Notes: generated by a model from the sequence alone, not told the origin. A stretch of 64,000 nucleotides of DNA from Thermodesulfobacteriota bacterium (GCA_965197885.1 OZ240231.1:1839366-1903365); one strand, 5' to 3'. Shown: positions 11,955-61,619, counted from the first letter of the stretch. Made by a program: numbers and translations.

Positions 11955-12731
11955 ATGAGCAAAACTGGAGAAATAAGACTTGTTTCCCTCGGGGGAATGC
12001 GGGAAGTGAAAAAGGGAGACAATCTCGGGGAGATGATCCTTCGCGCCGCCGCCCGGGAGGGGTTTTTGTTTCTCGACGGAGATGTCTTGGTGGTTGCGCA
12101 GAAGGTGGTCTCGAAAGCTGAAGGCAGGGTCGTTAATCTTTCCCGGGTCAAGCCTTCTGGTTTTGCAGTTACGGTTTCGCGGGAGGTTTCAAAGGATCCT
12201 AGGCTCGTAGAGGTAATTCTCGGGGAGACTAGAAGGATCGTAAGAATGGACCAGAGGGAAAGCGGCAAGGGGAGACTTATAGTTGAGACCGCTGGGGGGT
12301 TTATACTGGCAAATGCTGGCGTGGACGCCTCAAACGTTTCTGGAGGAGAAGATGTCACACTTCTGCCGCTTGATTCCGACCGCTCCGCCGGGGTTATAAG
12401 AGAACATATAAAAGGAGAAACTGGCAGAGATGTTGCCGTTATAATAACCGACACTGTCGGACGTCCCTGGCGGGAAGGTCTTACAGACATTGCGATTGGC
12501 TGTAGTGGCATGAAGGCGCTTTCTGATCGCAGGGGGGAGACCGACGCCAAGGGGCTTGTGCTTACCGCGACTGAGATGGCGACTGCTGATCAAGTGGCGT
12601 GTGCTGCCGGGATGCTGATGGAGAAAACCGCAGCGACCCCTGTGGTGGTAGTGCGCGGGGTCGACTACATTCGGGGAGAGGGAGGCTCGGGTGAACTGAT
12701 CAGAGATCCGGCTCATGATCTGTTTAGATAG
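11955..12731 (+). CDS. cofE: Coenzyme F420-0:L-glutamate ligase family protein (CofE-like)
   Basis: GDVLVVAQKVVSKAEGR and ILANAGVDASN motifs as recalled for the CofE/FbiB N-domain. Confidence 0.65.
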   Translation: MSKTGEIRLVSLGGMREVKKGDNLGEMILRAAAREGFLFLDGDVLVVAQKVVSKAEGRVVNLSRVKPSGFAVTVSREVSKDPRLVEVILGETRRIVRMDQRESGKGRLIVETAGGFILANAGVDASNVSGGEDVTLLPLDSDRSAGVIREHIKGETGRDVAVIITDTVGRPWREGLTDIAIGCSGMKALSDRRGETDAKGLVLTATEMATADQVACAAGMLMEKTAATPVVVVRGVDYIRGEGGSGELIRDPAHDLFR

Positions 12732-22899: not shown

Positions 22900-23952
22900 T
22901 CACTTGAAGTGACCGGTTACTTCCCCTGCAAGAACGTCAAAGGAATATTCTAGGTCGGGACTGAAATCCCTGATTATGAAGTGGGTGACTCCGGCTTCTA
23001 TGTATTCCTCAAACCTTTTTATAGCGTCGCGGGCCGTTCCGTAAATCACGAAATCAGACAGTATCTCCCGGGTATAGTACTTTTCTCCCATCTGCCTGAA
23101 TCTGGTTAGCATATCTTGGTCGTTTGGCATTATGCTTGTATAGGAAAGCCCCTTGTACAGCGGGTCTATTTTTAGATCGTATCCGGCTTCCTCTATGACA
23201 TCGGGCCAGATTATAGCGTGTTTTATTCTGTCCAGAGTCCCGTAGGCAGTGTCTTTATCCTTGGCGATGGACACAAAAATGTATATGCACTTCTCAAAGT
23301 TCTCCGGGGCGACGGGATTCTCATTCATGGCTTTTTCCACTTCACCGAGTTTGCTTGAAAAAACCCAGGTTGGCATCGCATTTGTTACCCAGCCGTTTCC
23401 AAGCGCACCGGCGGCCCCGAGAGCTTTCGGGCCGGTTGCGGCTATGTATAACGGGACTTCTTTTCCGTCAACCGGGCTTATCCTTACTTCGGCTTCACTA
23501 AGGGAGTAGAACTCGCCTTGGAAGGTCACCGTCTCTCCTGCCCAAAGCCGCCTCATAAGCGGCACAGCTTCCCGCAGACGCGCAAGAGGCCTGTTCCAGT
23601 TTATGCCGTAGTAATCAAGATTCATCTTTTCCCCGTACCCAAGACAACTGAATGCTCTTCCCTGAGAGAGATTGTCTATGGTTGCGAGTCTGTGGGCGAA
23701 TATTGCTGGATGGGATCTGTGAGGGTCCCCGATGGCTCCAAGGCGGATTCTGTCCGTTTTTACCGCAGCCGCCGTGATTATTGACCACACTTCGGGGGTC
23801 AGTTTTTTCGCCATAAACAGTATGTGGTCGGGAAACCATACGGCATCAAAACCGGCAGCCTCGCAGCGGACGGCGAAATCCACGAGTTCGGTAACGGGTT
23901 TGCCCGGAAGAGGTGCAGTAAGCCCGAAACTGATTTTTTCGCCCATTCTCAC
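22900..23952 (-). CDS. LLM-class flavin-dependent oxidoreductase (luciferase-like, possibly F420-dependent)
   Basis: TIM-barrel luciferase-like motifs (DAVWFPDH, GIGxxGYG-like). Confidence 0.65.
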
Positions 23953-37460: not shown

Positions 37461-38960
37461 TTGTCTGTCGAGGTGAAAATGGCACTGGATGATAATAGCG
37501 TCGCCCGAGAAATGGAACGTTACGTTTCGAATCTCGACAGGGACATTTATACCATAAGCAATATTCCCGAAGAAGTCGTTGCTGTTATCTTCGCCTATGT
37601 AAGCAGAAGCCCGAAAAGTTTCAGGGAAAACATAGATACTGTGATAAGGGAGCAGGAGATGGGGAGGGACAGGGCGGAGAAGTTCCATGAAAAATGGGTT
37701 CTTAACTACGGTCACGCCTCTGTTGCCGAGCACGCGACTGTGCACATAGGCGTTGAGAGGGTTTCAAGACTTTTCTCTTCCCTGCTTGAGTGCGCAAACG
37801 AGTTTCTCTCGTTCACCGAATATTCCCAGAGATACCAGAGACCGCGCAAAGGCGATAATTACATTCCCGAAGAGCTTGACTCACACCCGGCTCTTAAAAG
37901 AGAGTTCGAGTCGCTTTGCGATTTTCAGTACGAAGTTTACTCGAGGCTTAATGGGGAACTTTTTGATTTTCTGAAAAGAAAATTTCCCGTCCCCGAAGGC
38001 AAGGAGGAAAAACCCCACTTCAGGGCGCTTGAGAAAATAGCGTTTGAAGACGCGAGGTACGCTCTTAATCTCTCTACCCTTACGAATCTGGGTATGACGG
38101 CAAACGCAAGAGCCATAGAGCAGACTATCTCCGCGCTTCTTTCAAGCTGCTACCTTGAGGCGAGAAAAAGGGCCGAGGAGATAAAAAGCGAGGTCGGATT
38201 CTCCGTTCCTACGCTTGTAAAATACGCTGACGAAAACCCTTACATAGTCAAAACGCGCGAGGCGCTTGCGGAATTTTCCCGCGGTCTTGGCGGTCCGGAA
38301 AAAAGCAAACCCGAAAACGGATCCTCTGTGACTCTTTTTGACTACACAGGAAAGGGAAAGGAACGTCCCCAGGTCGAGGCGTTAAAGGAGATCGCTAGGG
38401 GGCTTCTTTTCGAATTCTCGGGACTTTCAGCCGGCGATATAGAAAGACATCTTTCCGAAAACACCTCTGAACTTGAGGGGATTTTCTCAATTGCCGTTGA
38501 GGCACTCGGAAGGCACGATAACCCGGCCGGGATATTCAAATCGGTTAGTTACAACGCGGAGTTTGTCCTGAGCGAGGCGGCGTGGCATCAACTGCTCAGG
38601 CACAGGAAAGTCAACTGGACCGCGAAGGAGCCTTCTATTGAGCAAGGCGTGACTATTCCCCCGCACGTTACGGAATCAGGAACGGAGGAACTCCTGCTCG
38701 AGGCCGTCGGACGAAGCGAGCAGTTCTACGAAAAACTCATTGACGCTGGTTTTCGCGATGTCGCGAGCTATGTTGTCACAAATGCTCATAACAGGAGGGT
38801 TTCGGGCAGTTTCGACCTATGGGAGCTTTATCACCTGACGAATCTCAGAATGTCTACCTCGGCACAGTGGGATATAAGAAATGTCGTCAGGCAGCTTGCG
38901 CAGAGCATTGAAGAGGTTCATCCGGTCTTCGTCCGTTCCGCCCTGCGGAGAGTCGAGTGA
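37461..38960 (+). CDS. thyX: FAD-dependent thymidylate synthase ThyX, tandem two-domain form
   Basis: Domain 1 has GHASVAEH and EYSQRY but lacks RHR. Domain 2 has RHR and NLRMSTSAQWDIRN, the ThyX LRxxxHAQWE motif. Confidence 0.65.
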   Translation: MSVEVKMALDDNSVAREMERYVSNLDRDIYTISNIPEEVVAVIFAYVSRSPKSFRENIDTVIREQEMGRDRAEKFHEKWVLNYGHASVAEHATVHIGVERVSRLFSSLLECANEFLSFTEYSQRYQRPRKGDNYIPEELDSHPALKREFESLCDFQYEVYSRLNGELFDFLKRKFPVPEGKEEKPHFRALEKIAFEDARYALNLSTLTNLGMTANARAIEQTISALLSSCYLEARKRAEEIKSEVGFSVPTLVKYADENPYIVKTREALAEFSRGLGGPEKSKPENGSSVTLFDYTGKGKERPQVEALKEIARGLLFEFSGLSAGDIERHLSENTSELEGIFSIAVEALGRHDNPAGIFKSVSYNAEFVLSEAAWHQLLRHRKVNWTAKEPSIEQGVTIPPHVTESGTEELLLEAVGRSEQFYEKLIDAGFRDVASYVVTNAHNRRVSGSFDLWELYHLTNLRMSTSAQWDIRNVVRQLAQSIEEVHPVFVRSALRRVE

Positions 38961-39852: not shown

Positions 39853-39908
39853 TTGACTTAGGAAATTATTTACTTATTATAGCAGATAATGATATTTTAT
39901 GCATATCA
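39853..39908 (+). promoter_or_regulatory. abiEi promoter with an inverted-repeat operator
   Basis: -35 TTGACT at 39853-58, a 16 nt spacer, and -10 TATTAT at 39875-80. The inverted repeat TGATAT-N7-ATATCA lies at 39890-39908 over the predicted transcription start. Confidence 0.45.
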
Positions 39909-39922
39909 ATACGGAGACTGCC

Positions 39923-40720
39923 ATGAATAATAAGCGCCCTAGGGCAAGCAGTGTCATAGATGAGTTTGCCTCGGTCGGCCGGTACCATTTCACTGCCGCG
40001 GAAATACGTTCGGCACTAGGCGTATCAGATGCTGCGACTAGACTTGCTCTTGGAAGGCTGGTGAAAAAAGGTTTGGTTGCGAGTCCGGGCCGTGGCTTCT
40101 ACGTCATCGTGCCGCCCGAATACCGACGCTTCGGATGTCTGCCTCCGGCCCAGTTTATCCCGCAGCTTATGGAGCGTCGTGAACGACCGTACTATGTCGC
40201 TTTGCTTTCCGCCGCCCAGTATCATGGGGCCGCTCATCACCGTCCGCAGGTATTCCAAGTCGCCGTCTCCGGAAGCCGCCGCCCGATTTCCTGTGGCGCG
40301 GTCAGGGTTTCCTTCATCTCACGGGCGCGCATTGCCGAGGTTCCGGTTCAGACTCTCAATACGCCATGCGGGACGCTTCTTCTTTCAACCGTTGAAGCAA
40401 CCGCGGTTGACTTGGTGGGTTACGCGCGACGCGCTGCGGGGTGGGACAACGTGGCGACAATTCTCTGCGAACTTGCTGAAGAAATTGATCCGAATCTGCT
40501 GTGCGAAGCTGCGCGAACCGCTCCGGTCACCTGGGCTCAGCGCCTTGGCTATCTCCTGGAACTTGTCGGCGCGGCGGATAAGGCGTTGCCGCTAAAGAAC
40601 TATGTGCGGCGCTACGCCCGTGACATCACGCCGCTCATTCCGCATGCCGCCGTAGATCACGCGAGGCGCGCCGATGACTGGCGGCTGTTGGTAAATGCCG
40701 ACGTGGAGTCTGAGGTATGA
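39923..40720 (+). CDS. abiEi: AbiEi family antitoxin/transcriptional regulator (type IV toxin-antitoxin system)
   Basis: N-terminal winged helix-like region and the AbiEi architecture. GC is clearly higher than in the flanks. Start set at MNNKRPR with a ggaga RBS; the track start at 39899 lies inside the operator. Confidence 0.7.
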   Translation: MNNKRPRASSVIDEFASVGRYHFTAAEIRSALGVSDAATRLALGRLVKKGLVASPGRGFYVIVPPEYRRFGCLPPAQFIPQLMERRERPYYVALLSAAQYHGAAHHRPQVFQVAVSGSRRPISCGAVRVSFISRARIAEVPVQTLNTPCGTLLLSTVEATAVDLVGYARRAAGWDNVATILCELAEEIDPNLLCEAARTAPVTWAQRLGYLLELVGAADKALPLKNYVRRYARDITPLIPHAAVDHARRADDWRLLVNADVESEV

Positions 40721-41532
40721 TCCCGCACCGTTACATCGCCGAGTGGCGAACTCAGGCACCGTGGCTGGAGGATTTCCAAGTCGAGCAGGACCTAATAATA
40801 AGCCGCGCGCTAGTTGAAATATTTTCCCATCCCGTCTTGGCGGCCGGACTTGCTTTTCATGGCGGCACGGCCCTCTACAAACTCTACCTGGAGCAGTCGA
40901 GCCGTTATTCGGAAGATATAGATCTGGTTCGGATAGCTCCCGGACCCGCCGGTGCCATAATGGATTCCATTCACGAAGTTCTCGATCCGTGGCTCGGTAA
41001 ACCTAAATGGAAACAGACCGAGCGCTCCGTTACGCTTCTTTACAGGTTTGAATCAGAAGATACACCGCCTTTACGCATGACTCTGAAAATTGAGATCAAT
41101 TCCCGCGAGCACTTCTCTGTCTTTGGCTATAATAAAGTTCCTTTTTCCGTCATTTCTTCCTGGTTTAACGGAACCTGTGATATTGTTACGTACTCGCTAG
41201 ACGAGCTTCTCGGCACGAAATTGCGCGCCCTTTATCAGCGCAAGAAAGGACGGGATCTTTTTGACTTGGCAACTGCGCTGGATAACGCGGCTGTCGATCC
41301 CGAACGTGTTATCACAGCATTTTTCGAATACATGAAACGGGGCGGCGACCACATCACCCGTGCCTTGTTTGAACGAAACATGGCGGACAAACTGCAAGAC
41401 CCGCGATTTGACGCCGACATAGTACCCTTGCTGGCGCCTGGCTGCCTCTGGAATATGGAAGAGCTGGCTAGAAGCGTTTCCACACGGCTCATTGCATTGT
41501 TGCCCGGTCAACCGTGGAAGGGAGAGGGATGA
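40717..41532 (+). CDS. abiEii: Nucleotidyltransferase AbiEii/AbiGii toxin family protein (DUF1814)
   Basis: HGGTALYKLY...RYSEDIDL nucleotidyltransferase motif. ATGA overlap with abiEi. Confidence 0.8.
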   Translation: MIPHRYIAEWRTQAPWLEDFQVEQDLIISRALVEIFSHPVLAAGLAFHGGTALYKLYLEQSSRYSEDIDLVRIAPGPAGAIMDSIHEVLDPWLGKPKWKQTERSVTLLYRFESEDTPPLRMTLKIEINSREHFSVFGYNKVPFSVISSWFNGTCDIVTYSLDELLGTKLRALYQRKKGRDLFDLATALDNAAVDPERVITAFFEYMKRGGDHITRALFERNMADKLQDPRFDADIVPLLAPGCLWNMEELARSVSTRLIALLPGQPWKGEG

Positions 41533-53503: not shown

Positions 53504-53627
53504 ACCGTTTTAAGTTGCGCCGCTTGGCCGCGGTCCCCATTTCCGCTTAACAAAAAAAAGGGATGACAGATAGTCCCAAAATCAGTAGTATAGAAGTGTC
53601 GTTGCATATAAAAAAGGAGGTCTCAAG

Positions 53628-54977
53628 ATGAGAGTGGCGTGTTTGGGAAAACTTGGAAATCACTTTTTGAACAATGGTAATTATGTAGCGCGGGTTGGAA
53701 AAAGAGTTGCCAAATCTCTTGACGTTTCGCGCGTTTTTATCGTGGCGGCTGGCCTCCTGCTCGGGTTTTTGCTTCTGGGCGGACCCGTGGAGGTGAGAAC
53801 ACAGCAGACCAACTCCGACGGCGATCTTAGGCTGGTGGACAAGACAGCAGGTACGGTAATTGACCTCACTACGGCTACGACGCCTTCGGGCAGACTTGAG
53901 ATATTTGATGATGAGGATGGCGACGGTACCGGGGAATGGAAGGGAATATGCGATGATGCTCTGGGAGTGCTGGGAACAGAAAAGGAAGGAAACGTTCGGG
54001 TGATCGGCAGGCAGGAGGCCGAGGTCGCGTGTCGCCAGTTGGGTTTCTCGGGAGGCACTCCGATAACTCAGTTGACGTTGCCGGATGATTCGGATTACCT
54101 GCTTGACAATCTTGAATGCGCGGGTTCGGAAGCAAAAATTCTAGGAGAGGGCAAATGCAGACATAACACGCGCGGAGAACATAATTGCGAAAGCGCGGAG
54201 GCTTTTGGCGTCACCTGTGCGGCCGCCACCACGAACAACGATGCCGTAGGCCGACTTGCGATCACGGGAACAACTCAGTTGCGCCAGACGCTTACCGCGG
54301 ATCACACCGGTATCACCGATGAGGACGGCAAGCCGACCGAGGCGACTTCTTTTAGCTATCAGTGGATCAGGGTTGATTTTTACTGGAACGAGACCGAGAT
54401 CTCGGGCGCAACGTCTTCCACCTATGTCCTTCAGGACGCCGATGAGGAAAACTGGATCAAGGTGAAGCTTACTTTCACGGACGATGAAGAGAACGAGGAG
54501 GAGGTTTTCAGTTTTGAAGAGGGATCTGTCTATACCGACAAGCCCGACGGTTCCCTTCGATTAAAGCCCCTTAGGCTTACTTATGATCTTGGTGGTGGTG
54601 TTAGTATCACCGTGGACTCGGATGAATTCACGGGCATGGTTGAAATATATGATGAGCCGAGCAAGAAATGGAAGGGGGTATGTGATGACGGGGCGGGTAA
54701 TGAGAATCTGGGATGGGGCACGGAAGAATCGGAGGTTGCATGTCGCCAGCTGGGTTTTGCGGGAGGCACCCCGCTAACCCAGATAAATGGGGCCACTTAT
54801 CCGCCGATCTATTTCCTGCTTGATGAAGTAGTGTGCGAGGGGACGGAGGATAAGCTGCTTGATTGTGAGCATGCGGAACGTGGAACCCACGACTGCACCT
54901 CCGCGGAATACGCAGGTGTTTTTTGCGACGATCCTGATGCTGAAGACGACAGCACCACGGACGACAGCGGCAGCTAG
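53628..54977 (+). CDS. Secreted protein with two scavenger-receptor cysteine-rich (SRCR)-like domains flanking an Ig-like domain
   Basis: Each SRCR unit has LRLV...GRLEIFD...W.G.CDD...EA.VACRQLGF.GGTP...LLD.(V/L)(E/V)C.G.E..L..C.H...G.H(N/D)C...E.AGV.C with six Cys. The middle domain is SFSYQWIRV...ISGATSSTYVLQ.ADE..WIKVKL.FTD. An AAGGAGG RBS lies upstream. Confidence 0.7.
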   Translation: MRVACLGKLGNHFLNNGNYVARVGKRVAKSLDVSRVFIVAAGLLLGFLLLGGPVEVRTQQTNSDGDLRLVDKTAGTVIDLTTATTPSGRLEIFDDEDGDGTGEWKGICDDALGVLGTEKEGNVRVIGRQEAEVACRQLGFSGGTPITQLTLPDDSDYLLDNLECAGSEAKILGEGKCRHNTRGEHNCESAEAFGVTCAAATTNNDAVGRLAITGTTQLRQTLTADHTGITDEDGKPTEATSFSYQWIRVDFYWNETEISGATSSTYVLQDADEENWIKVKLTFTDDEENEEEVFSFEEGSVYTDKPDGSLRLKPLRLTYDLGGGVSITVDSDEFTGMVEIYDEPSKKWKGVCDDGAGNENLGWGTEESEVACRQLGFAGGTPLTQINGATYPPIYFLLDEVVCEGTEDKLLDCEHAERGTHDCTSAEYAGVFCDDPDAEDDSTTDDSGS

Positions 54978-55070
54978 GCTCAGAAAATTTCCGAGGTGAA
55001 TTGAAGAACCATCCGCGCCTTGGGAGCAACCTGATTGTATCAAGCGGAAAATAAAAGGACTGAGAATATC

Positions 55071-56204
55071 ATGAAAACTGTAAAATTTCTGCTTCTTTTC
55101 TGTTGTATGTTGGGGCTTGCTTGTCATAACGGTTCTGACGAAGGCATAACCGTCGGTGAAGTTACAGACGATGTCACCACCTTGAGAGAATTCGTGGAAT
55201 ATGCGGCAGGGCGCCTGCAGGACTCGGCCAGTTTTGAAGAAGCGATGCAGCTCATAAACGAGTTCAGGGATGTTGGGGGGGACTGGAACGATGGTTCCAC
55301 GTACCTCGTTCTTCTTACCAAGGGTGGCGGTGTGTATATCCATGCAAAAAACAGAAAGCTTGAGGATCAGGACTGGTCTGGTCTTCAGGATGCAAGTGGC
55401 AAGAATGTGGGAGAAGAGTTTCTCAGGGAGGAAGGGGGTTTTGTAGGATATCATGGGGAGGACGGGGACCCGAAGGTGAGTTATGCGTTTCCGTTTGCCG
55501 CTACGTCTGTTCCGCTTACCAATCCATTTGCGCCTGAAGGACAGGAGCTTGTCCTGGTTGGCGGCTTTGATTATGAGCCCCCGGAGGTCAGTGAAAAAGC
55601 TTCCTATGAGCAGCTTTCCGACTCTTATAATCTACGCCAGTTCGAGCCGACTCTGCAAGCCAGATATGTGGATACTCGAGCGGAGCTAAAACAGTTCGTG
55701 GAAGAGGCGATCAGTTTTTTTACAGGAGCCTTGGCACGGGGTGTTTCTGGTCATTCGGTGGTGGGGGATGCTGCTGGCAATATTGACGTCGTGCTGTTAC
55801 GGAGAATCTTCAGGCTTGAAAATGGCCCTTGGCGATATGGTTCCACCTACATCTATATAATGGATGACCGGGGCAATGTTGTATTCAACGGGGCCAACAG
55901 AAGTATTGAGCAGACAAACTTGTGGGATTTTACTCCTCCTGACAGTGTCGATACGTTTATTCAGAGGATCATAGCCGCGGCGGAGATACCGGGCGGAGGT
56001 TTTGTCGACTACAACTGGGATGATCCAGAGGATCCGAAGGACGACCCGCCTGGTGGTGGTGCCGGAGGTTCTTCGCCCAAGCTTGGCTACGCGAAAGCCG
56101 TCCGGATCGATAAGGGCGATCCCATGTCCCCCGTCTATGTTTTTGGTTCCGGGCTCTACCATCCGGAGCGACTGGAGGAGCCGAAGGAAGAACCCGGAAG
56201 ATAA
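55071..56204 (+). CDS. Lipoprotein with two Cache-like (extracellular sensor-type) repeats and no transmembrane or signalling domain
   Basis: Lipobox LGLAC. Two repeats end in GGFVGYHGEDGDP and GGGFVDYNWDDPEDP, which resembles Cache G-x-G-(F/Y)-V-x-Y-x-W. Start trimmed to MKTVKF. Confidence 0.45.
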   Translation: MKTVKFLLLFCCMLGLACHNGSDEGITVGEVTDDVTTLREFVEYAAGRLQDSASFEEAMQLINEFRDVGGDWNDGSTYLVLLTKGGGVYIHAKNRKLEDQDWSGLQDASGKNVGEEFLREEGGFVGYHGEDGDPKVSYAFPFAATSVPLTNPFAPEGQELVLVGGFDYEPPEVSEKASYEQLSDSYNLRQFEPTLQARYVDTRAELKQFVEEAISFFTGALARGVSGHSVVGDAAGNIDVVLLRRIFRLENGPWRYGSTYIYIMDDRGNVVFNGANRSIEQTNLWDFTPPDSVDTFIQRIIAAAEIPGGGFVDYNWDDPEDPKDDPPGGGAGGSSPKLGYAKAVRIDKGDPMSPVYVFGSGLYHPERLEEPKEEPGR

Positions 56205-56524
56205 AAAGCAAATTAAGATTTAAAAATCATGCCGGGGCTGCAACACCGCCTGATTTATATGTGATCACTGCAGTATTGCTCCCAAACACCCACTGTTTTT
56301 CGCCGACACTGTCGGTTCCAGATTCTTCTTAGCCCATTTATGTTTCTTTTTAGTCATCCTTCTTTTGCTGTTGCGAAGTTTCCGTCAGACGGTCTGCTTT
56401 TGTGAAACTTGCCTTAGAAGCGGACTCCAAAAACTGGACGGTGTTTTAACTTGGCCTATGTCCGCGGTTCTGGCTTTTGCTTTAACAGTCGCGCGGATGT
56501 GGTAACATAAAACTTCTTCCCGAC

Positions 56525-56598
56525 TGGGGCGTCGTCTAACGGCAGGACACCGGGTTTTGGTCCCGGTAGTGGGGGTTCGAGTCCTCCCGCCCCAGCCA
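56525..56598 (+). tRNA. tRNA-Gln (anticodon TTG)
   Basis: Cloverleaf folded by hand. Acceptor stem TGGGGCG/CGCCCCA has the U1-A72 pair typical of bacterial tRNA-Gln. Anticodon loop is TTTTGGT and the T-loop is GTTCGAGTC. CCA is encoded. Confidence 0.8.
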
Positions 56599-56620
56599 AA
56601 GAAGACGGTTCAAAGCGCCC

Positions 56621-58747
56621 GTGCCAAAAAATTCTCTTAAAGGACTTAACTCTTCCCAGATCGAAGCCGTAAGCCATGGAGAAGGCCCTCTGCTTGTTCT
56701 AGCGGGTACAGGTACAGGAAAAACTAGGATAATAGCCCACCGGATCGCCTACCTGCTGAACGATCTTTCGATTTCTCCCAGAAACATCTTGGCCGTAACT
56801 TTTACCAACAAGGCGGCCGCGGAGATGAAAAAAAGAGCGGGGGAACTATCGGGCGAGCGGACAAGAGGCATCTGGCTCGGCACCTTTCACTCGATTTGTC
56901 TTCGGATTCTTAACATAGAGGCGGATTCTCTTGAGGGACACACTAGGGATTTTGTCGTCTACGACCAGAACGATCAGCTGAACTTGATAAAAAACTGCAT
57001 GAAGGAGCTTGACTATGGGGAAAGCCTTTTCTCGCCCAAGGGTGTGCTTTCCGAATTTGATGCTGTTGAGAACCGAGGAGACGTGTTTTTCAAAGATGAC
57101 TTTTACGGCCGCGCGCTGAGAGAGCTTTATGATTTCTGCAAAAATGAGCTCGTGAAACGAAACGCCATGACGTTTAATGACCTGCTACGCCTTGCGAACA
57201 AGCTTCTTTCGGAGAATGAAGAGGTTTGTTCCCGCTATCAGGACAGGTTCTCTCACGTGCTTGTCGATGAGTATCAGGATACAAATGTTGTTCAGTACCG
57301 CTTCGTAAAGACCCTCTCGCAGCGGCACCGAAACCTTTTCGTGCTAGGTGATGACAGCCAGTCGATTTACGGGTGGAGAGGGGCTGACATAAACAATATC
57401 CTTAACTTCGAGAGAGACTTTTCGGGGGCCAGGGTTGTTAAGCTTGAGCGCAATTATCGCTCGACGTCTACCATACTTGGCATTGCGAACTCGGTAATAG
57501 AGAAAAACCTGAGGAGAAAGAAAAAAAAACTCCGGACCGAAAACCCTGCGGGAGAGAGGGCGGTGGTATTCAGAGCCGGCGACGGCGCTGACGAAGCTCA
57601 GTTTGTTGCGGAGCGAATTTCACTTCTGGTCGAATCCGGGGATTTCACATGGGGCGACGTGGCGATTTTCTACAGGGCAAACTTTCAGTCGAGGGTGATT
57701 GAGGAAGGACTCGGGGCCGGGGGGATCCCCTACAGGATAGTGTCGGGAGTCGGCTTTTATCGGAGGGCCGAGATAAAGGACGTGGTCGCCTACCTTCGGC
57801 TGATTCAGAACCCGAGGGACGACGTTAGCTTTGAGAGGATAGTGAACGTTCCCCCGAGGAAAATAGGGAAAATCACGCTTCGAAAACTGCGCGAGGTTTC
57901 GGAAGCCGGCGGATTCACTCTTCTGGACGCTATTGAATACAGCCAGGAGGAAAACCTTCTGTCGGGACGCGCGCTCCTGGCGCTCTCACGGTTTCTTGAC
58001 ATCATAAAGGAGCTTAGCTCGGCGGCGCAAGACCAGCCGGTGGCAACCGTTATCAAGGCTCTTTTGGAGCGTACCGGTTACCTGGATTACATCGGAGAAG
58101 AGCACTACAGGGTGGAGAACGTTAAAGAGCTTTTAAATGCCGCTGAGGTCTTCGGGGAAATGACCCTATCTGATTTTCTCGACCTTGTGCTGCTCGCTAC
58201 AGACGAGGACAGAGCGGATCCCGGAGAGGGAAAAGTTTCCCTCATGACGATTCACGCGGCAAAGGGGCTTGAGTTTCCCGTGGTGTTCGTGGTCGGGATA
58301 AACGAGGGTCTGCTTCCCCACTATAGATCTGCTTCCACTCTTGAGGGGCTTGAGGAGGAGAGAAGACTTTTCTATGTTGCGGTCACCCGGGCCAAGCAGC
58401 TTCTCTACCTCAGTTACGCTTCCCAAAAAGCTGCTTCGGGTCGCATGCATAGCGCGCACAGATCAGTTTTTCTGGATGATCTCCCGTCGGAACACGTCGT
58501 CTACGAATCCCGCAAGGAAGAAATTTCCGGTCGGGGTTCTGACCTTTCTGCGGATTCGTCCTCAAAAACACCGCGCGAGTCCGGGGACGAAGGTCAAAGC
58601 TTAAGACCCGGCCAGAGGGTTACCCACCCGACTTTCGGTCCCGGGATCGTTAACCGGATTGATGGTAAAGGGAACGAGGCCGAGGTCACGGTTGATTTTT
58701 TTGGTTCCGGAGTGAAGAAGATCGTCGCGAGTTTTCTTACCTCCTAG
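56621..58747 (+). CDS. pcrA: ATP-dependent DNA helicase (UvrD/PcrA/Rep family)
   Basis: Walker A AGTGTGKT and helicase motifs I-VI. GTG start 23 nt after the tRNA. Confidence 0.9.
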   Translation: MPKNSLKGLNSSQIEAVSHGEGPLLVLAGTGTGKTRIIAHRIAYLLNDLSISPRNILAVTFTNKAAAEMKKRAGELSGERTRGIWLGTFHSICLRILNIEADSLEGHTRDFVVYDQNDQLNLIKNCMKELDYGESLFSPKGVLSEFDAVENRGDVFFKDDFYGRALRELYDFCKNELVKRNAMTFNDLLRLANKLLSENEEVCSRYQDRFSHVLVDEYQDTNVVQYRFVKTLSQRHRNLFVLGDDSQSIYGWRGADINNILNFERDFSGARVVKLERNYRSTSTILGIANSVIEKNLRRKKKKLRTENPAGERAVVFRAGDGADEAQFVAERISLLVESGDFTWGDVAIFYRANFQSRVIEEGLGAGGIPYRIVSGVGFYRRAEIKDVVAYLRLIQNPRDDVSFERIVNVPPRKIGKITLRKLREVSEAGGFTLLDAIEYSQEENLLSGRALLALSRFLDIIKELSSAAQDQPVATVIKALLERTGYLDYIGEEHYRVENVKELLNAAEVFGEMTLSDFLDLVLLATDEDRADPGEGKVSLMTIHAAKGLEFPVVFVVGINEGLLPHYRSASTLEGLEEERRLFYVAVTRAKQLLYLSYASQKAASGRMHSAHRSVFLDDLPSEHVVYESRKEEISGRGSDLSADSSSKTPRESGDEGQSLRPGQRVTHPTFGPGIVNRIDGKGNEAEVTVDFFGSGVKKIVASFLTS

Positions 58748-58754
58748 CGGCGGA

Positions 58755-58782
58755 GGCCCTTATAAAGGGGTTTTCCGCCCTA
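58755..58782 (+). terminator. Weak terminator-like hairpin after the helicase gene
   Basis: ggaggCCCTtataaAGGGgttttcc. Confidence 0.3.
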
Positions 58783-58897
58783 GAACGGATAATTCGCTTT
58801 TCTGCACTGTGCCGTTTAAGTCGCCTGCGGTTCTGCATAATATTTTTGACTCGACCGGTTGTTTCCAATATTCTTATATTAGTGCATTTTACTTGCG

Positions 58898-60100
58898 GTG
58901 GGGAAAATGACTAGATCTTTTAAAATTCTGCATATTTTCCTGGTTGCGGTGGCGCTTTTACTGCTGGGAGGGTCCACGCAGATAAGTGCGCAGGGTACCA
59001 ATGCTGACGGCGACCTTCGGTTAGTGGATACGACCGCCGGCACTGTGGTGGACACTACTGCCGCTACTGGGCTTTCGGGCAGGCTTGAGATATTCGATGA
59101 TGCGGACGGTGATGGCACCGGCACGTGGAAGGGAATATGCGATGATTTCATGGAACCGGTAAACGGGGTGATGAGGGGCACAGAAGAGGCACAGGTTGCG
59201 TGTCGGCAGCTTGGCCTTTCTGGGGGTACTCCGATGACCAGGCTTACCGTACCGGAGAGCACGTACTCCTCGGACTATTACCTGCTTGATGAGCTTGAGT
59301 GCACGGGTTCGGAGACCAGGATCCTCGGCCAGGATAAGTGCAGACACCGCCCGCGCGGGGAGAACAACTGCTTCAGCATTGAGGCTTTTGGCGTTACCTG
59401 TGTGGCTGCTACAACTTCCTCGAACAGCACTGCCACTGGCAGGCTCACAATCTCGGGCACGACAGAAACAGGGCAGACTATGACCTCAGACCGCTCCGGG
59501 GTGACTGACGAGGATGTTATGCCATCAGAGGAAAGTTCGTTTTCCTATCAGTGGATCAGGGTAGGTTATTACGACTACAGCGAGACTGAAATTTCCGAAG
59601 CGACGAGCTCGACATATGTTCTCCAGTCGGCGGATGAAGACCACTGGATCAAGGTAAAGCTTAGTTTTACCGACAAAGAGGAGAATTCGGAGGAGATCTC
59701 AAGCTTCCCGGAAGGTCCTGTTTATCCCGATGTTTCCGACGGCACCCTTCGTTTAAGCCCTACCAGCGATTCCTCGGATAATTACACGGGCATGCTTGAA
59801 ATATTCGATAACCAAAAGAAGCGATGGAAGGGAGTATGCGATGACGGCTGGGGCACGGAAGAGGCGCAGGTTGCATGCAGCCAGCTGGGATTCTCGGGTA
59901 ATACTCCGAAGACGGACATAATCAGGACGGGGTGGCCGCCGCTGCTTTTCCTGCTTGACGAAGTGGATTGTGACGGTACGGAAGAAACTCTGCTAGATTG
60001 CGACCATGCGGAACGCGGCGTGAACGACTGCGTTGCCTGGGAGTACGCGGGCGTCTCTTGCGAGGCTCCTTCTGAGCCGGAAGTCTCGCCCACGCAATAA
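58898..60100 (+). CDS. Secreted SRCR-Ig-like-SRCR protein, paralog of 53628..54977
   Basis: Canonical signal peptide (cleavage near ISA-QG) and the same three-domain order with conserved Cys spacing. Confidence 0.7.
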   Translation: MGKMTRSFKILHIFLVAVALLLLGGSTQISAQGTNADGDLRLVDTTAGTVVDTTAATGLSGRLEIFDDADGDGTGTWKGICDDFMEPVNGVMRGTEEAQVACRQLGLSGGTPMTRLTVPESTYSSDYYLLDELECTGSETRILGQDKCRHRPRGENNCFSIEAFGVTCVAATTSSNSTATGRLTISGTTETGQTMTSDRSGVTDEDVMPSEESSFSYQWIRVGYYDYSETEISEATSSTYVLQSADEDHWIKVKLSFTDKEENSEEISSFPEGPVYPDVSDGTLRLSPTSDSSDNYTGMLEIFDNQKKRWKGVCDDGWGTEEAQVACSQLGFSGNTPKTDIIRTGWPPLLFLLDEVDCDGTEETLLDCDHAERGVNDCVAWEYAGVSCEAPSEPEVSPTQ

Positions 60101-60143
60101 TAAGGGCCACTGGCAAGCCGGCCGCAGACGGGGGTTTTTTCAG

Positions 60144-61619
60144 CTAGGAAAGACAGCTCACGACGAGGTCTTTTGCCCACTCGGGGGAGGAAATTGCGTA
60201 GTTCCCATACTCCGGCTGATCCGAGAAGGGATTCTCGAAGATCCTCCTTACTTTTTCTATTTCCGAATAGTCTTCCCGCTCAAGAGCCTCCCTTATCGCG
60301 GTCTCCATTATATGGTTTCTCAGGACGTACCTGGGATTAACGGAGTCCATGAGCTTCTTTCTCTTGAGGTCAGGAAGCGAATTTCCCCTGAGCTCCCCGA
60401 CGTACTCACGGAACCACCGCCGCCATTGCTCCGAAGTTTCGGAGAGTTCTACGAGCCATGGGTTTTCCCCGAAAGAGCCGTCACTCTTTACGTCCGAGAT
60501 GTTTCGAAGAAAGATATGGTAATCCGTTTTGAATTCGGCGAGCATCCCGAGAGTCTTTTCGATGAACCGCAGGGATTCCTTTTTTTCCTTTTCAAAACCG
60601 AACTTGCGCAGCATGAGTTCTCTGTAGGCATTTGAAAACGTTTTGTTGTAGACTTCGATTGCGTCCCGCGCCTGTTTTTCGTCCACGAGGCCGTCGAGGC
60701 ATTTTGTGAATTTCTCAAGGTTCCACCGCGCGATTGCGGGCTGGTTCGCGTAGCTGTACCTGCCGAAATGATCCGAGTGGTTTGAGACGTGATCCCTGTC
60801 GAATGTCTCGAGGAATCCGTACGGTCCGTAATCAAGGGTTAGACCCGTTACGGACATGTTGTCGGTATTCATTACGCCGTGGGTGAAGCCGAAAGCCTGC
60901 CACTTTGCGATTGTGGAAGCCGTTTTTTCGGCCGTTGCGGACAAAAAGAGCCCGTAGCCTTCCTTTGTCCGGTGGGGAATCTCGGGGTAGTGGCGGGCGA
61001 TTACGTAATCCGCAAGCGTCTGGACGTTTTCCTCCTCCCCCCGGTGATAAAAGCCTTCGAAAGAACCGAACCGCACGTGGGTTTCCGCGACCCGAAGCAT
61101 CATCGCGGCGGGTTCCCTGGTTTCCCTGTCGATTTTCTCTGTGCTACCCACCACGCAGAGCGCCCTTGTGGAGGGAATCCCCAGATGATGAAGAGCCTCG
61201 CTTCCGAGATATTCTCTTATGGAGGACCTGAGCGTAGCCCTTCCGTCAAAGCCTCTTGAAAACCTGGTCGCTCCGCATCCCTTGAGATGGAGATCCCACC
61301 TGCGGTTTTGCTCATCGATTATCTGCCCGAGCAGAAGCGCTCTTCCGTCTCCAAGGTGCGGGTTATAGACACCGAACTGCCACCCGGCGTAGTACATCGC
61401 CAGGGGGTCTGCGCCCGCGATGGTCCTTTTCCCGCAGAGATACTCTGCCAGAAGGGGGTTTTGTTTCTCGCCGGGGTCTATGCCTATCTGCGCAGCCAGG
61501 TTTTCATTGAACGCCACCATATGGGGGCTCTCAAAGGGGACAGGGTCTTTTTTCTGGTAGAACCCAGGCGGCAGTTCCGCGTAGGCGTTTTCAAAGCGAA
61601 GGTTTGTTATTTTCCTCAT
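60144..61619 (-). CDS. selO: Protein adenylyltransferase SelO (YdiU/UPF0061 family)
   Basis: 491 aa with a SelO kinase-like fold signature (GDGRA, HGVMNTDNMS). Confidence 0.85.
   Translation of the reverse strand: MRKITNLRFENAYAELPPGFYQKKDPVPFESPHMVAFNENLAAQIGIDPGEKQNPLLAEYLCGKRTIAGADPLAMYYAGWQFGVYNPHLGDGRALLLGQIIDEQNRRWDLHLKGCGATRFSRGFDGRATLRSSIREYLGSEALHHLGIPSTRALCVVGSTEKIDRETREPAAMMLRVAETHVRFGSFEGFYHRGEEENVQTLADYVIARHYPEIPHRTKEGYGLFLSATAEKTASTIAKWQAFGFTHGVMNTDNMSVTGLTLDYGPYGFLETFDRDHVSNHSDHFGRYSYANQPAIARWNLEKFTKCLDGLVDEKQARDAIEVYNKTFSNAYRELMLRKFGFEKEKKESLRFIEKTLGMLAEFKTDYHIFLRNISDVKSDGSFGENPWLVELSETSEQWRRWFREYVGELRGNSLPDLKRKKLMDSVNPRYVLRNHIMETAIREALEREDYSEIEKVRRIFENPFSDQPEYGNYAISSPEWAKDLVVSCLS

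Follow-up and report, generated by a model that had tools for sequence, protein, structure and literature searches.

Two bacterial genes encode SRCR-Ig-like-SRCR proteins

The stretch of DNA analysed here (hereafter, the window) covers 64,000 nucleotides (nt) from the genome of a Thermodesulfobacteriota bacterium (GCA_965197885.1 OZ240231.1:1839366-1903365). An earlier note, made from the sequence alone, had proposed that two of its open reading frames (ORFs) encode paralogous secreted proteins in which two SRCR domains surround an Ig-like domain. Both ORFs, here called paralog 1 (SRCR1) and paralog 2 (SRCR2), were found where they had been placed (Table 1), and no third SRCR gene was present elsewhere in the window. 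Their products were 60% identical across 397 residues by BLASTP, in agreement with the roughly 60% estimated by eye. The analyses presented below identify these proteins as genuine bacterial members of the SRCR superfamily, which constitute a lineage-specific exported SRCR-Ig-like-SRCR family of a sponge-dwelling Dadabacteria-type bacterium.

The Pfam SRCR family (PF00530) matched two separate stretches in each protein, with E-values of 5.8e-28 for paralog 1 and 2.4e-30 for paralog 2. The corresponding scores (97.6 and 105.2 bits) were far above the gathering score of 26.1, which bears out the SRCR assignment of the earlier note. When PDB sequences were searched with phmmer, CD163 was the top match (E 1e-42), and CD5L, SCARA5, LOXL2, neurotrypsin, M2BP, DMBT1 and MARCO were also recovered. 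An AlphaFold2 model of paralog 2 (mean predicted local distance difference test, pLDDT, 85.4; predicted template modelling score, pTM, 0.78) contained the SRCR fold, a compact alpha/beta structure of about 100-110 residues. Together with the alignment, the model delimited a signal (amino acids, aa, 1-31), an SRCR domain (about aa 38-170), a beta module (about aa 178-272), a second SRCR domain (about aa 281-390) and a short tail. Foldseek searches of the PDB with this model retrieved CD163 (E 1e-15) as well as single-SRCR crystal structures from SCARA5 (7c00), M2BP (1by2), MARCO (2oy3), SCARA1 (6j02) and DMBT1 (6san), the latter with template modelling scores of 0.80-0.89, root-mean-square deviations of 2.0-2.7 A and identities of 30-34%. 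The structural likeness on which the earlier proposal depended was, therefore, present in the predicted model, which superposes on animal SRCR crystals.

Twelve SRCR cysteines, located in paralog 2 at positions 81, 102, 135, 148, 158 and 168 of the N-terminal head and 314, 327, 358, 368, 378 and 388 of the C-terminal head, were kept in 47-49 of the 49 members of our family alignment, to which all conservation counts refer. Each unit presented the C2, C3, C5, C6, C7 and C8 pattern. Since the two extra group B cysteines (the C1-C4 pair) were absent, with none before GRLE/GRxE nor within LGxSG/LGxG, the units follow the group A pattern, as had been claimed. The disulfide topology of group A (C2-C7, C3-C8 and C5-C6) would pair residues 81-158, 102-168 and 135-148 in the N head and 314-378, 327-388 and 358-368 in the C head. 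In proteins P0090 and P0091, C81 (C2) and C158 (C7) of the N head were missing together, as expected for the canonical C2-C7 disulfide. The N head of this most divergent lineage (L010:8001-9266) also carried a D83 to K substitution and an E162 to S or H substitution, and its C-terminal SRCR head was intact. The N head may be degenerating or switching function in this lineage.

The middle domain required a less direct identification. In the paralog 2 model it was an all-beta module of seven strands. The Pfam threshold for an Ig family was not reached (IG_AIR9, E 0.11; 12.8 bits, where the gathering score is 27.5), and the domain scanned alone against Pfam gave no Ig family match. Nevertheless, it shared 32-49% identity, with E-values as low as 1e-19, with repeats arranged in tandem in three bacterial surface-type proteins, P0093, P0095 and P0104, all of which pass the IG_AIR9 cut-off and match SCAB-Ig, the latter match passing its cut-off in P0104. 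P0104 also carried cadherin and Calx-beta domains, and precomputed FN3 matches were present in P0097 and P0107. In addition, Foldseek matched the model to the Ig domain of SCAB1 (E 2.5e-4). The earlier Ig-like claim thus failed on direct Pfam score and was upheld by homology to AIR9-A9/SCAB-Ig (PF23197/PF16709) repeats and by the predicted fold; because of this transitive homology to IG_AIR9 repeats and the predicted beta fold, we consider the label correct.

A putative cation site is conserved in both SRCR heads

In SRCR8 of SALSA/DMBT1, two surface cations are coordinated by the residue sets D1019/D1020/E1086 and D1020/D1058/D1059/N1081, and a mutant of D1019 or D1020 no longer binds hydroxyapatite, heparin or a streptococcal protein; this cation site has been argued to be common to SRCR domains generally (PMC7043408). 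We set the equivalent positions of the bacterial proteins by motif position and HMMER alignment to CD163. Each head contained the acidic motifs CDD, LD[D/E], N/D-C and E-x-[F/A]-G-V. In the N head, D82 was invariant (49 members), D83 was kept in 47 and E162 in 46, and position 157 was N in 31 members and D in 13. In the C head, D315 and D316 were each kept in 44 members, D354 in 49 and E382 in 48, with position 355 occupied by E (24) or D (22) and position 377 by D (38) or N (11). The most variable site position across the family was the LD[D/E] of the N domain. This conservation suggests that a putative dual cation site has been retained in both heads, whose residues would cluster in three dimensions and bind Ca2+ and ligand as in animal SRCR domains. 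The N head also contained an acidic insertion, FDDxDGDG(T/S/A)GxW, which was conserved in the family and looks like a further calcium loop.

The SRCR genes are stable, selected components of a bacterial chromosome

The genes surrounding the two paralogs in the window are of the housekeeping type, and include those for glycolysis, methylmalonyl-CoA mutase, an RND pump, ThyX, CCA-adding enzyme, DnaE, BamD and OmpA. Guanine-cytosine (GC) content was even at about 0.51, with the SRCR genes matching their flanks. The closest genomes were two chromosomes of 1.85-1.92 Mb (OZ252213.1 and OZ253668.1) labelled 'MAG: Thermodesulfobacteriota bacterium' (MAG, metagenome-assembled genome), and two ERZ contigs carrying the same locus bear the circular '_c' tag. 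Remoter homologs were labelled 'Candidatus Dadabacteria bacterium'. The bacterium itself is of the Dadabacteria type, with a genome of about 1.9 Mb.

Close genomes shared the gene order ispE-SRCR-Cache-uvrD-(SRCR)-selO-DUF2103-dnaE, and orthologs of paralog 1 occupied the same ispE-SRCR-Cache-uvrD slot in L001, L002, L003-L007, L008, L009 and L013. The ratio of non-synonymous to synonymous substitution rates (dN/dS) of both SRCR genes was 0.13-0.25, in the same range as those of ispE, uvrD and selO, indicating that both are under purifying selection. Because of this synteny and these dN/dS values, we regard them as stable, selected bacterial genes and not as contamination or relics.

Some variation was observed at the edges of this conserved order. 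When window positions 53628-56204 were compared with L003 and L013, the dS of the SRCR and Cache genes was 2-3 times that of the flanks (e.g. 1.47 and 2.44 versus 0.67-0.90), which could reflect allelic replacement, recombination or another history different from that of the flanks, or a saturated estimate. The region 3' of paralog 2 was rearranged in relatives: an IS1595-family transposase and a leftover 3' fragment of selO were present in L002 (11433-13990) and L008, and duplicated selO and uvrD fragments in L009:11243-17707. A local insertion hotspot adjoins the second SRCR copy.

Traceable homologs come from sponge holobionts, where at least one copy is transcribed

About 90 full-length relatives were recovered, and the only names attached to them were Candidatus Dadabacteria and 'Thermodesulfobacteriota bacterium'. 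The earlier note had weighed the possibility of an unrelated cysteine-rich family widespread in free-living bacteria; the distribution found was instead confined, among named relatives, to Dadabacteria-type labels, and every homolog whose source could be traced came from a sponge holobiont. The traceable sources correspond to three studies. A homolog of paralog 2, P0001 (IMG 3300042672), was 97% identical to it at the amino acid level, and its 1471-nt contig was about 98% identical at the nucleotide level to window positions 58901-60371. This data set is a metatranscriptome combined from three deep-sea sponges, namely Geodia barretti, G. pachydermata and Pachastrella ovisternata (PMC10837836). 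Such a transcript contig in a sponge metatranscriptome indicates that a paralog 2-type gene is transcribed in the host by a near-identical organism. In the metagenome scan, at least two loci (L014 and L015) were LXNI01 contigs, which derive from the Sarcotragus foetidus sponge metagenome (PMC5099237). Finally, L004 and L007, contigs of the P0069 lineage, carried the tag ROBB21-1, which we read as the Robbins 2021 study of reef demosponges, where 22 Dadabacteria MAGs are reported (PMC8163846). A 'Thermodesulfobacteriota bacterium' MAG of similar size has also been reported from Cliona cf. orientalis (PMC12639293). The window genome (about 1.9 Mb, GC about 0.51) is unlike those of the streamlined pelagic Dadabacteria, which are of about 1.22 Mb and low GC (PMC8115339).

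The transcript contig continued for about 270 nt beyond the paralog 2 stop and entered convergent selO at its 3' end, in antisense (window 60098-60371, L012:1200-1471). No clear intrinsic terminator was found between paralog 2 and selO, which lie 43 nt apart.

Gene starts, export signals and feature coordinates

The ORF of paralog 2 opens at a GTG (Table 1). Because all orthologs begin with MTRSFK, matching an ATG at 58907, and because the 5' end of the sponge transcript contig corresponds to window position 58901, 6 nt before that ATG, the true start is probably ATG 58907, with a product of 397 aa. In paralog 1, the position of a Shine-Dalgarno sequence just ahead of the annotated ATG argues that the basic N-terminal tail is translated. 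Promoter-like matches were present upstream of both genes and were not in excess in the paralog region (7 versus 4.6 +/- 2.2 in shuffled sequences).

Table 1. Coordinates of the SRCR genes, their domains and associated features in the 64-kb window
Feature	Position	Strand	Description
Promoter-like matches, 5' of paralog 1	53547..53591	+	two overlapping sigma-70-like matches; consensus match only
Shine-Dalgarno sequence	53615..53620	+	AGGAGG, 7 nt ahead of paralog 1 ATG 53628
Paralog 1 (SRCR1)	53628..54977	+	449 aa: basic N-tail, hydrophobic segment, SRCR, Ig-like, SRCR, short acidic tail
Paralog 1 export region	53628..53795	+	35-aa basic tail (isoelectric point, pI, 11), then 21-aa hydrophobic segment
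Paralog 1 N-terminal SRCR	53823..54221	+	aa 66-198; with DDEDGDGTG acidic insertion
Paralog 1 Ig-like domain	54240..54527	+	aa 205-300
Paralog 1 C-terminal SRCR	54543..54929	+	aa 306-434
Partner gene	55071..56204	+	exported tandem sCache_2-like protein (predicted), 377 aa; directly 3' of paralog 1
Promoter-like hexamers, 5' of paralog 2	58846..58880	+	ahead of the sponge transcript contig, which starts at 58901
Paralog 2 (SRCR2)	58898..60100	+	ORF from GTG 58898, 400 aa; Sec signal, SRCR, Ig-like, SRCR
Paralog 2 signal peptide	58898..58990	+	..LLLLGGSTQISA, followed by QG; sequence features only
Paralog 2 N-terminal SRCR	59009..59407	+	aa 38-170
Paralog 2 Ig-like domain	59429..59713	+	aa 178-272
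Paralog 2 C-terminal SRCR	59738..60067	+	aa 281-390

Both paralogs appear to be exported past the cytoplasmic membrane. The signal peptide claimed for the two proteins by the earlier note was recognised in paralog 2 by its sequence features; it did not hold as such for paralog 1, whose basic tail and hydrophobic segment do not make a simple signal and would correspond to either a signal anchor or a Sec signal with a long n-region. A twin-arginine translocation (Tat) signal in paralog 1 was considered and rejected, as the N-tail had no twin-arginine motif. The acidic tail that had also been described was found in paralog 1, short as it is (15 aa), and not in paralog 2, where the last 10 aa are hardly acidic; the tail is unconserved. 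The mature proteins taken as a whole were very acidic, with a pI of about 4.1. The presence of BamD and OmpA genes within the window indicates a diderm-type cell.

A tandem-Cache protein is encoded next to the SRCR genes

The gene directly 3' of paralog 1 matched sCache_2 (PF17200, E 1e-17) and dCache_2 (E 4e-17) in Pfam. Its AlphaFold model (pLDDT 84.9) contained two PAS-like modules, and Foldseek matched it to the sCache sensor domains of chemoreceptors (4k08, 2qhk, 5g4y and 3ub8). At the N-terminus was a single hydrophobic segment that closes with a lipobox-like MLGLAC; neither another membrane segment nor a cytoplasmic output domain was detected by Pfam and hydropathy. The protein is probably exported and lipid-anchored and, since it carries no transmitter, is not itself a transducer of the methyl-accepting chemotaxis protein or histidine kinase type.

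The pairing of SRCR and Cache genes was observed in seven of the eight distinct lineages examined, including the distant L010 (with a gap of 17 nt) and L011, both with different outer flanks, and L014, where the SRCR gene is duplicated in tandem. We also noted that the link extends to an unrelated SRCR architecture: P0113, a singleton with Big_12 repeats and one SRCR domain encoded on a 315-kb bacterial contig, was followed by a Cache family member with 52% identity.

The Cache family comprised 331 matches, with several paralogs per genome. Among its members (proteins P0155-P0268, L016:7623-8873 and the window copy), an N-terminal lipobox only was found in 20 (including the window copy), a C-terminal tail only in 77, both in 1 and neither in 10; these two nearly exclusive anchoring modes point to an envelope-anchored partner. 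The conserved C-terminal tail ran from an acidic linker through DGGC[A/S] and a spacer to a hydrophobic helix and, last, a basic cluster. Its three-part layout is shared with sorting signals of the exosortase and rhombosortase type, and the tail may be an undescribed sorting signal. NCBIfam held no model for the SRCR family, the Cache family or this tail. Among the Cache relatives, P0269, P0271 and P0272 (42-43% identity over two thirds of the query) carried Spondin_N (PF06468) instead of the Cache models. Spondin_N is a domain typical of the animal extracellular matrix. Lastly, a divergent SRCR protein (P0078) and a Cache protein (P0187) were encoded on the gene-length contigs L018 and L019 (1353 and 1989 nt), both from IMG 3300047102; this would fit transcript assembly and co-expression.

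The bacterial SRCR domains form their own clade

When a profile of the C-terminal domain was used, the family's own N-terminal domains scored 72-89 bits and sea-urchin DMBT1 domains 71-79 bits. In a neighbour-joining tree without bootstrap values, the N and C domains were sister clades within a single bacterial group, which was not nested in any animal group. The best eukaryote matches were echinoderm and mollusc proteins with 24-31% identity, and no sponge protein was among the best. Because the bacterial domains form their own clade and their best eukaryote matches are remote and not from sponges, any transfer of the SRCR domain, in either direction, is probably ancient, and a recent transfer from a sponge was rejected on the same grounds. 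The duplication, which the earlier note had taken to be old, also appears so in the tree, which carries no support values: the paralog 2 clade branches outside all paralog 1-type clades. Paralog 2 is, thus, either an old duplicate or a copy from a divergent lineage.

Copy number differed among loci. A single SRCR copy was present in L010, L011, L013 and L015, a tandem pair in L014, and two copies split by Cache-uvrD in the window clade. In the P0069 lineage (L003-L007), a short gene of 153-185 aa (L003:9279-9833) was located directly 5' of the full-length gene. It encoded only the C-terminal part of the Ig-like domain and one SRCR domain, so it represents a partial duplicate or else a variant with a single head.

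Comparison with known systems

The proteins share with the animal group A SRCRs (SCARA5, SR-AI/SCARA1, MARCO and Mac-2 binding protein) the fold of about 110 aa, the six cysteines, the acidic site motifs and, as predicted, an extracytoplasmic location. Unlike the animal proteins, they carry a Sec-type signal, lack any stalk (collagenous, coiled-coil or transmembrane), place two heads around an AIR9/SCAB-type Ig repeat and are paired with a Cache gene; in their N head, the first loop is longer and there is the DxDGDG(T/S/A)G acidic insertion. DMBT1/SALSA/gp340 and CD163 similarly place several SRCR heads on one chain, and the residues of their broad, Ca2+-dependent ligand-binding surface are conserved in the bacterial heads. 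However, they are of group B (eight cysteines), contain SID/CUB/ZP or transmembrane regions and have many more repeats, whereas the bacterial proteins have two group A heads.

The eukaryote-like proteins of sponge symbionts (ankyrin, TPR, LRR, WD40, fibronectin-III and cadherin) also combine an animal-typical domain with a sponge-associated bacterium and transcription in the host, and have a proposed role in keeping the host association. In contrast to those that are intracellular repeat effectors, the bacterial SRCR would be an extracytoplasmic module of the disulfide type. The types listed in two sponge-symbiont papers are ankyrin, LRR, TPR, HEAT, WD40, cadherin and fibronectin, with SRCR not among them (PMC8163846, PMC10837836). 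Literature searches retrieved no report of bacterial or Dadabacteria SRCR proteins, and the related SRCR papers concern, judging by title and abstract, host or animal biology. The Cache partner, in turn, shares its module fold and Pfam family with the sCache_2 sensors of chemoreceptors (Adeh_3718, V. parahaemolyticus 2QHK, PscD and TlpB), but members of its family are standalone proteins of two modules, without transmembrane helix or transmitter, and are anchored by a lipobox or a C-terminal DGGC-type tail.

Proposed role and alternative explanations

We propose that the SRCR proteins could be Ca2+-dependent, two-headed extracytoplasmic binders that serve sponge attachment or mimicry, probably in cooperation with the anchored Cache protein, a reading to which we give about an even chance. 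Once exported through Sec and disulfide-bonded, each protein would present two SRCR heads held apart by the Ig-like spacer. The acidic cluster of each head would coordinate Ca2+ and bridge to anionic ligands, so that both heads would bind polyanionic or glycan/protein ligands in a Ca2+-dependent manner. The likeliest ligands are constituents of the mesohyl matrix of the sponge or molecules used in host recognition. The symbiont would be anchored in its host by this means, or the protein would compete with the host's large SRCR receptor repertoire through mimicry or as a decoy. In the most speculative step, the neighbouring lipid-anchored Cache protein would work with the SRCR protein at the envelope, either as a tether or as a co-sensor of small ligands. 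That the two proteins form a two-part surface recognition module confined to sponge-dwelling Dadabacteria, with heads that sequester sponge SRCR ligands as an immune decoy and a Cache protein that couples host small-molecule sensing, seems unlikely to us; if true, it would represent a bacterial decoy of the animal innate-immune receptor family that tells food from resident bacteria.

How sponges discriminate resident symbionts from food bacteria is a long-standing question, and, of the host candidates for this task, SRCR receptors belong to the most strongly expanded. The shared animal SRCR domain suggests a symbiont that binds or mimics host recognition molecules, and symbiont SRCR heads with a conserved site, at least one gene copy being transcribed in the host, offer a testable handle on symbiont recognition. 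The proteins are small and soluble, point mutants of them can be predicted, and Dadabacteria from sponges and from free-living settings can be compared for whether they carry them. In addition, these genes extend the SRCR superfamily into bacteria with a conserved, selected family distinguished by its architecture and partner gene, a matter of relevance to the evolutionary origin of the fold.

Several points weigh against attachment or mimicry as the role. The sponge provenance derives from three studies, and look-ups of IMG 3300047102, IMG 3300012932, the ERZ assemblies, NGUY21 and SHAF22 gave no environment; the scan of genome contigs, carried out with one protein, reached only two close relatives, so that enrichment in sponge lineages over free-living relatives would be a tentative reading. 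The correspondence of the putative cation site was drawn from motif alignment. The Cache partner was missing in L015, the only such case, and the adjacency of SRCR and Cache genes is not proof of a physical or functional interaction. Moreover, the signal of paralog 1 may be an uncleaved anchor, which would leave the protein in the periplasm of a diderm cell, where host ligands would be out of reach without further secretion; no secretion system was found within the 64-kb window.

This last possibility leads to an envelope-internal role with no host target, such as nutrient capture or sensing in the periplasm or at the surface together with the Cache lipoprotein, or envelope organisation. Its ligands could be, for example, carboxylates of the kind that sCache modules bind, or dissolved organic matter of polyanionic character, and Dadabacteria have been described as degraders of microbial dissolved organic matter (PMC8115339), in line with such a role. 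The SRCR-Cache pairing kept across lineages and architectures, the resemblance of the Cache modules to sensors of small carboxylates or amides (Adeh_3718, 2QHK/4EXO, PscD and TlpB), the possible signal anchor of paralog 1, and the several Cache paralogs per genome, which would make them a general feature of the lineage, all fit this explanation. However, every occurrence that could be traced is from a sponge, an SRCR head whose cation site is intact has typically been a macromolecule binder in each case characterised, and no gene for a transporter or signalling output adjoins the Cache partner. We consider this role the main alternative, albeit a rather improbable one.

Sponge attachment or mimicry also has to be set against targets within the microbiome itself. 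Animal SRCRs often use the same cation site to bind polyanions on the surface of bacteria, and a two-headed protein could act as a microbe-microbe agglutinin of bacteria (through lipopolysaccharide or polyanions of the teichoic-acid type) or phage in the sponge microbiome, as DMBT1/SALSA does. The variable copy number and arrangement (single, tandem, truncated or split) and a cassette more diverged than its flanks would fit the arms race that such a function entails; yet dN/dS was not raised, and no toxin, defence or secretion genes were linked at any locus examined, so that we regard an agglutinin as quite unlikely. As SRCR domains are overwhelmingly animal and sponges have hundreds of SRCR genes, we also considered that the genes might be sponge DNA wrongly joined to bacterial sequence during assembly, or the decaying remains of transferred genes. 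The same locus was present in independent assemblies, including circular chromosomes, and the genes were intron-free, had bacterial Shine-Dalgarno and signal sequences and a GC content equal to that of their flanks, and showed a dN/dS of about 0.2. The middle domain is an Ig repeat of the bacterial type and no close sponge homolog exists, the best eukaryote matches being those from echinoderms and molluscs (24-31%). Host contamination or chimeric assembly was rejected on the basis of synteny, signals, GC and selection, and the chance of an artefact is negligible.

Other genes in the window

Three further observations were made away from the SRCR locus. An AbiEi antitoxin gene (Pfam AbiEi_1, E 3e-45) followed by an overlapping ORF of 271 aa was located at 39899-41532, and the two probably constitute an AbiE toxin-antitoxin or abortive-infection pair. 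An ORF of 499 aa (37461-38960) contained two Thy1 (ThyX) stretches, being about twice as long as the 191-position Thy1 profile, and may be a fused tandem ThyX. Finally, genes for an F420-0:gamma-glutamyl ligase (CofE, 11955-12731) and a luciferase-like monooxygenase (22900-23952) hint at F420-dependent metabolism in the symbiont.

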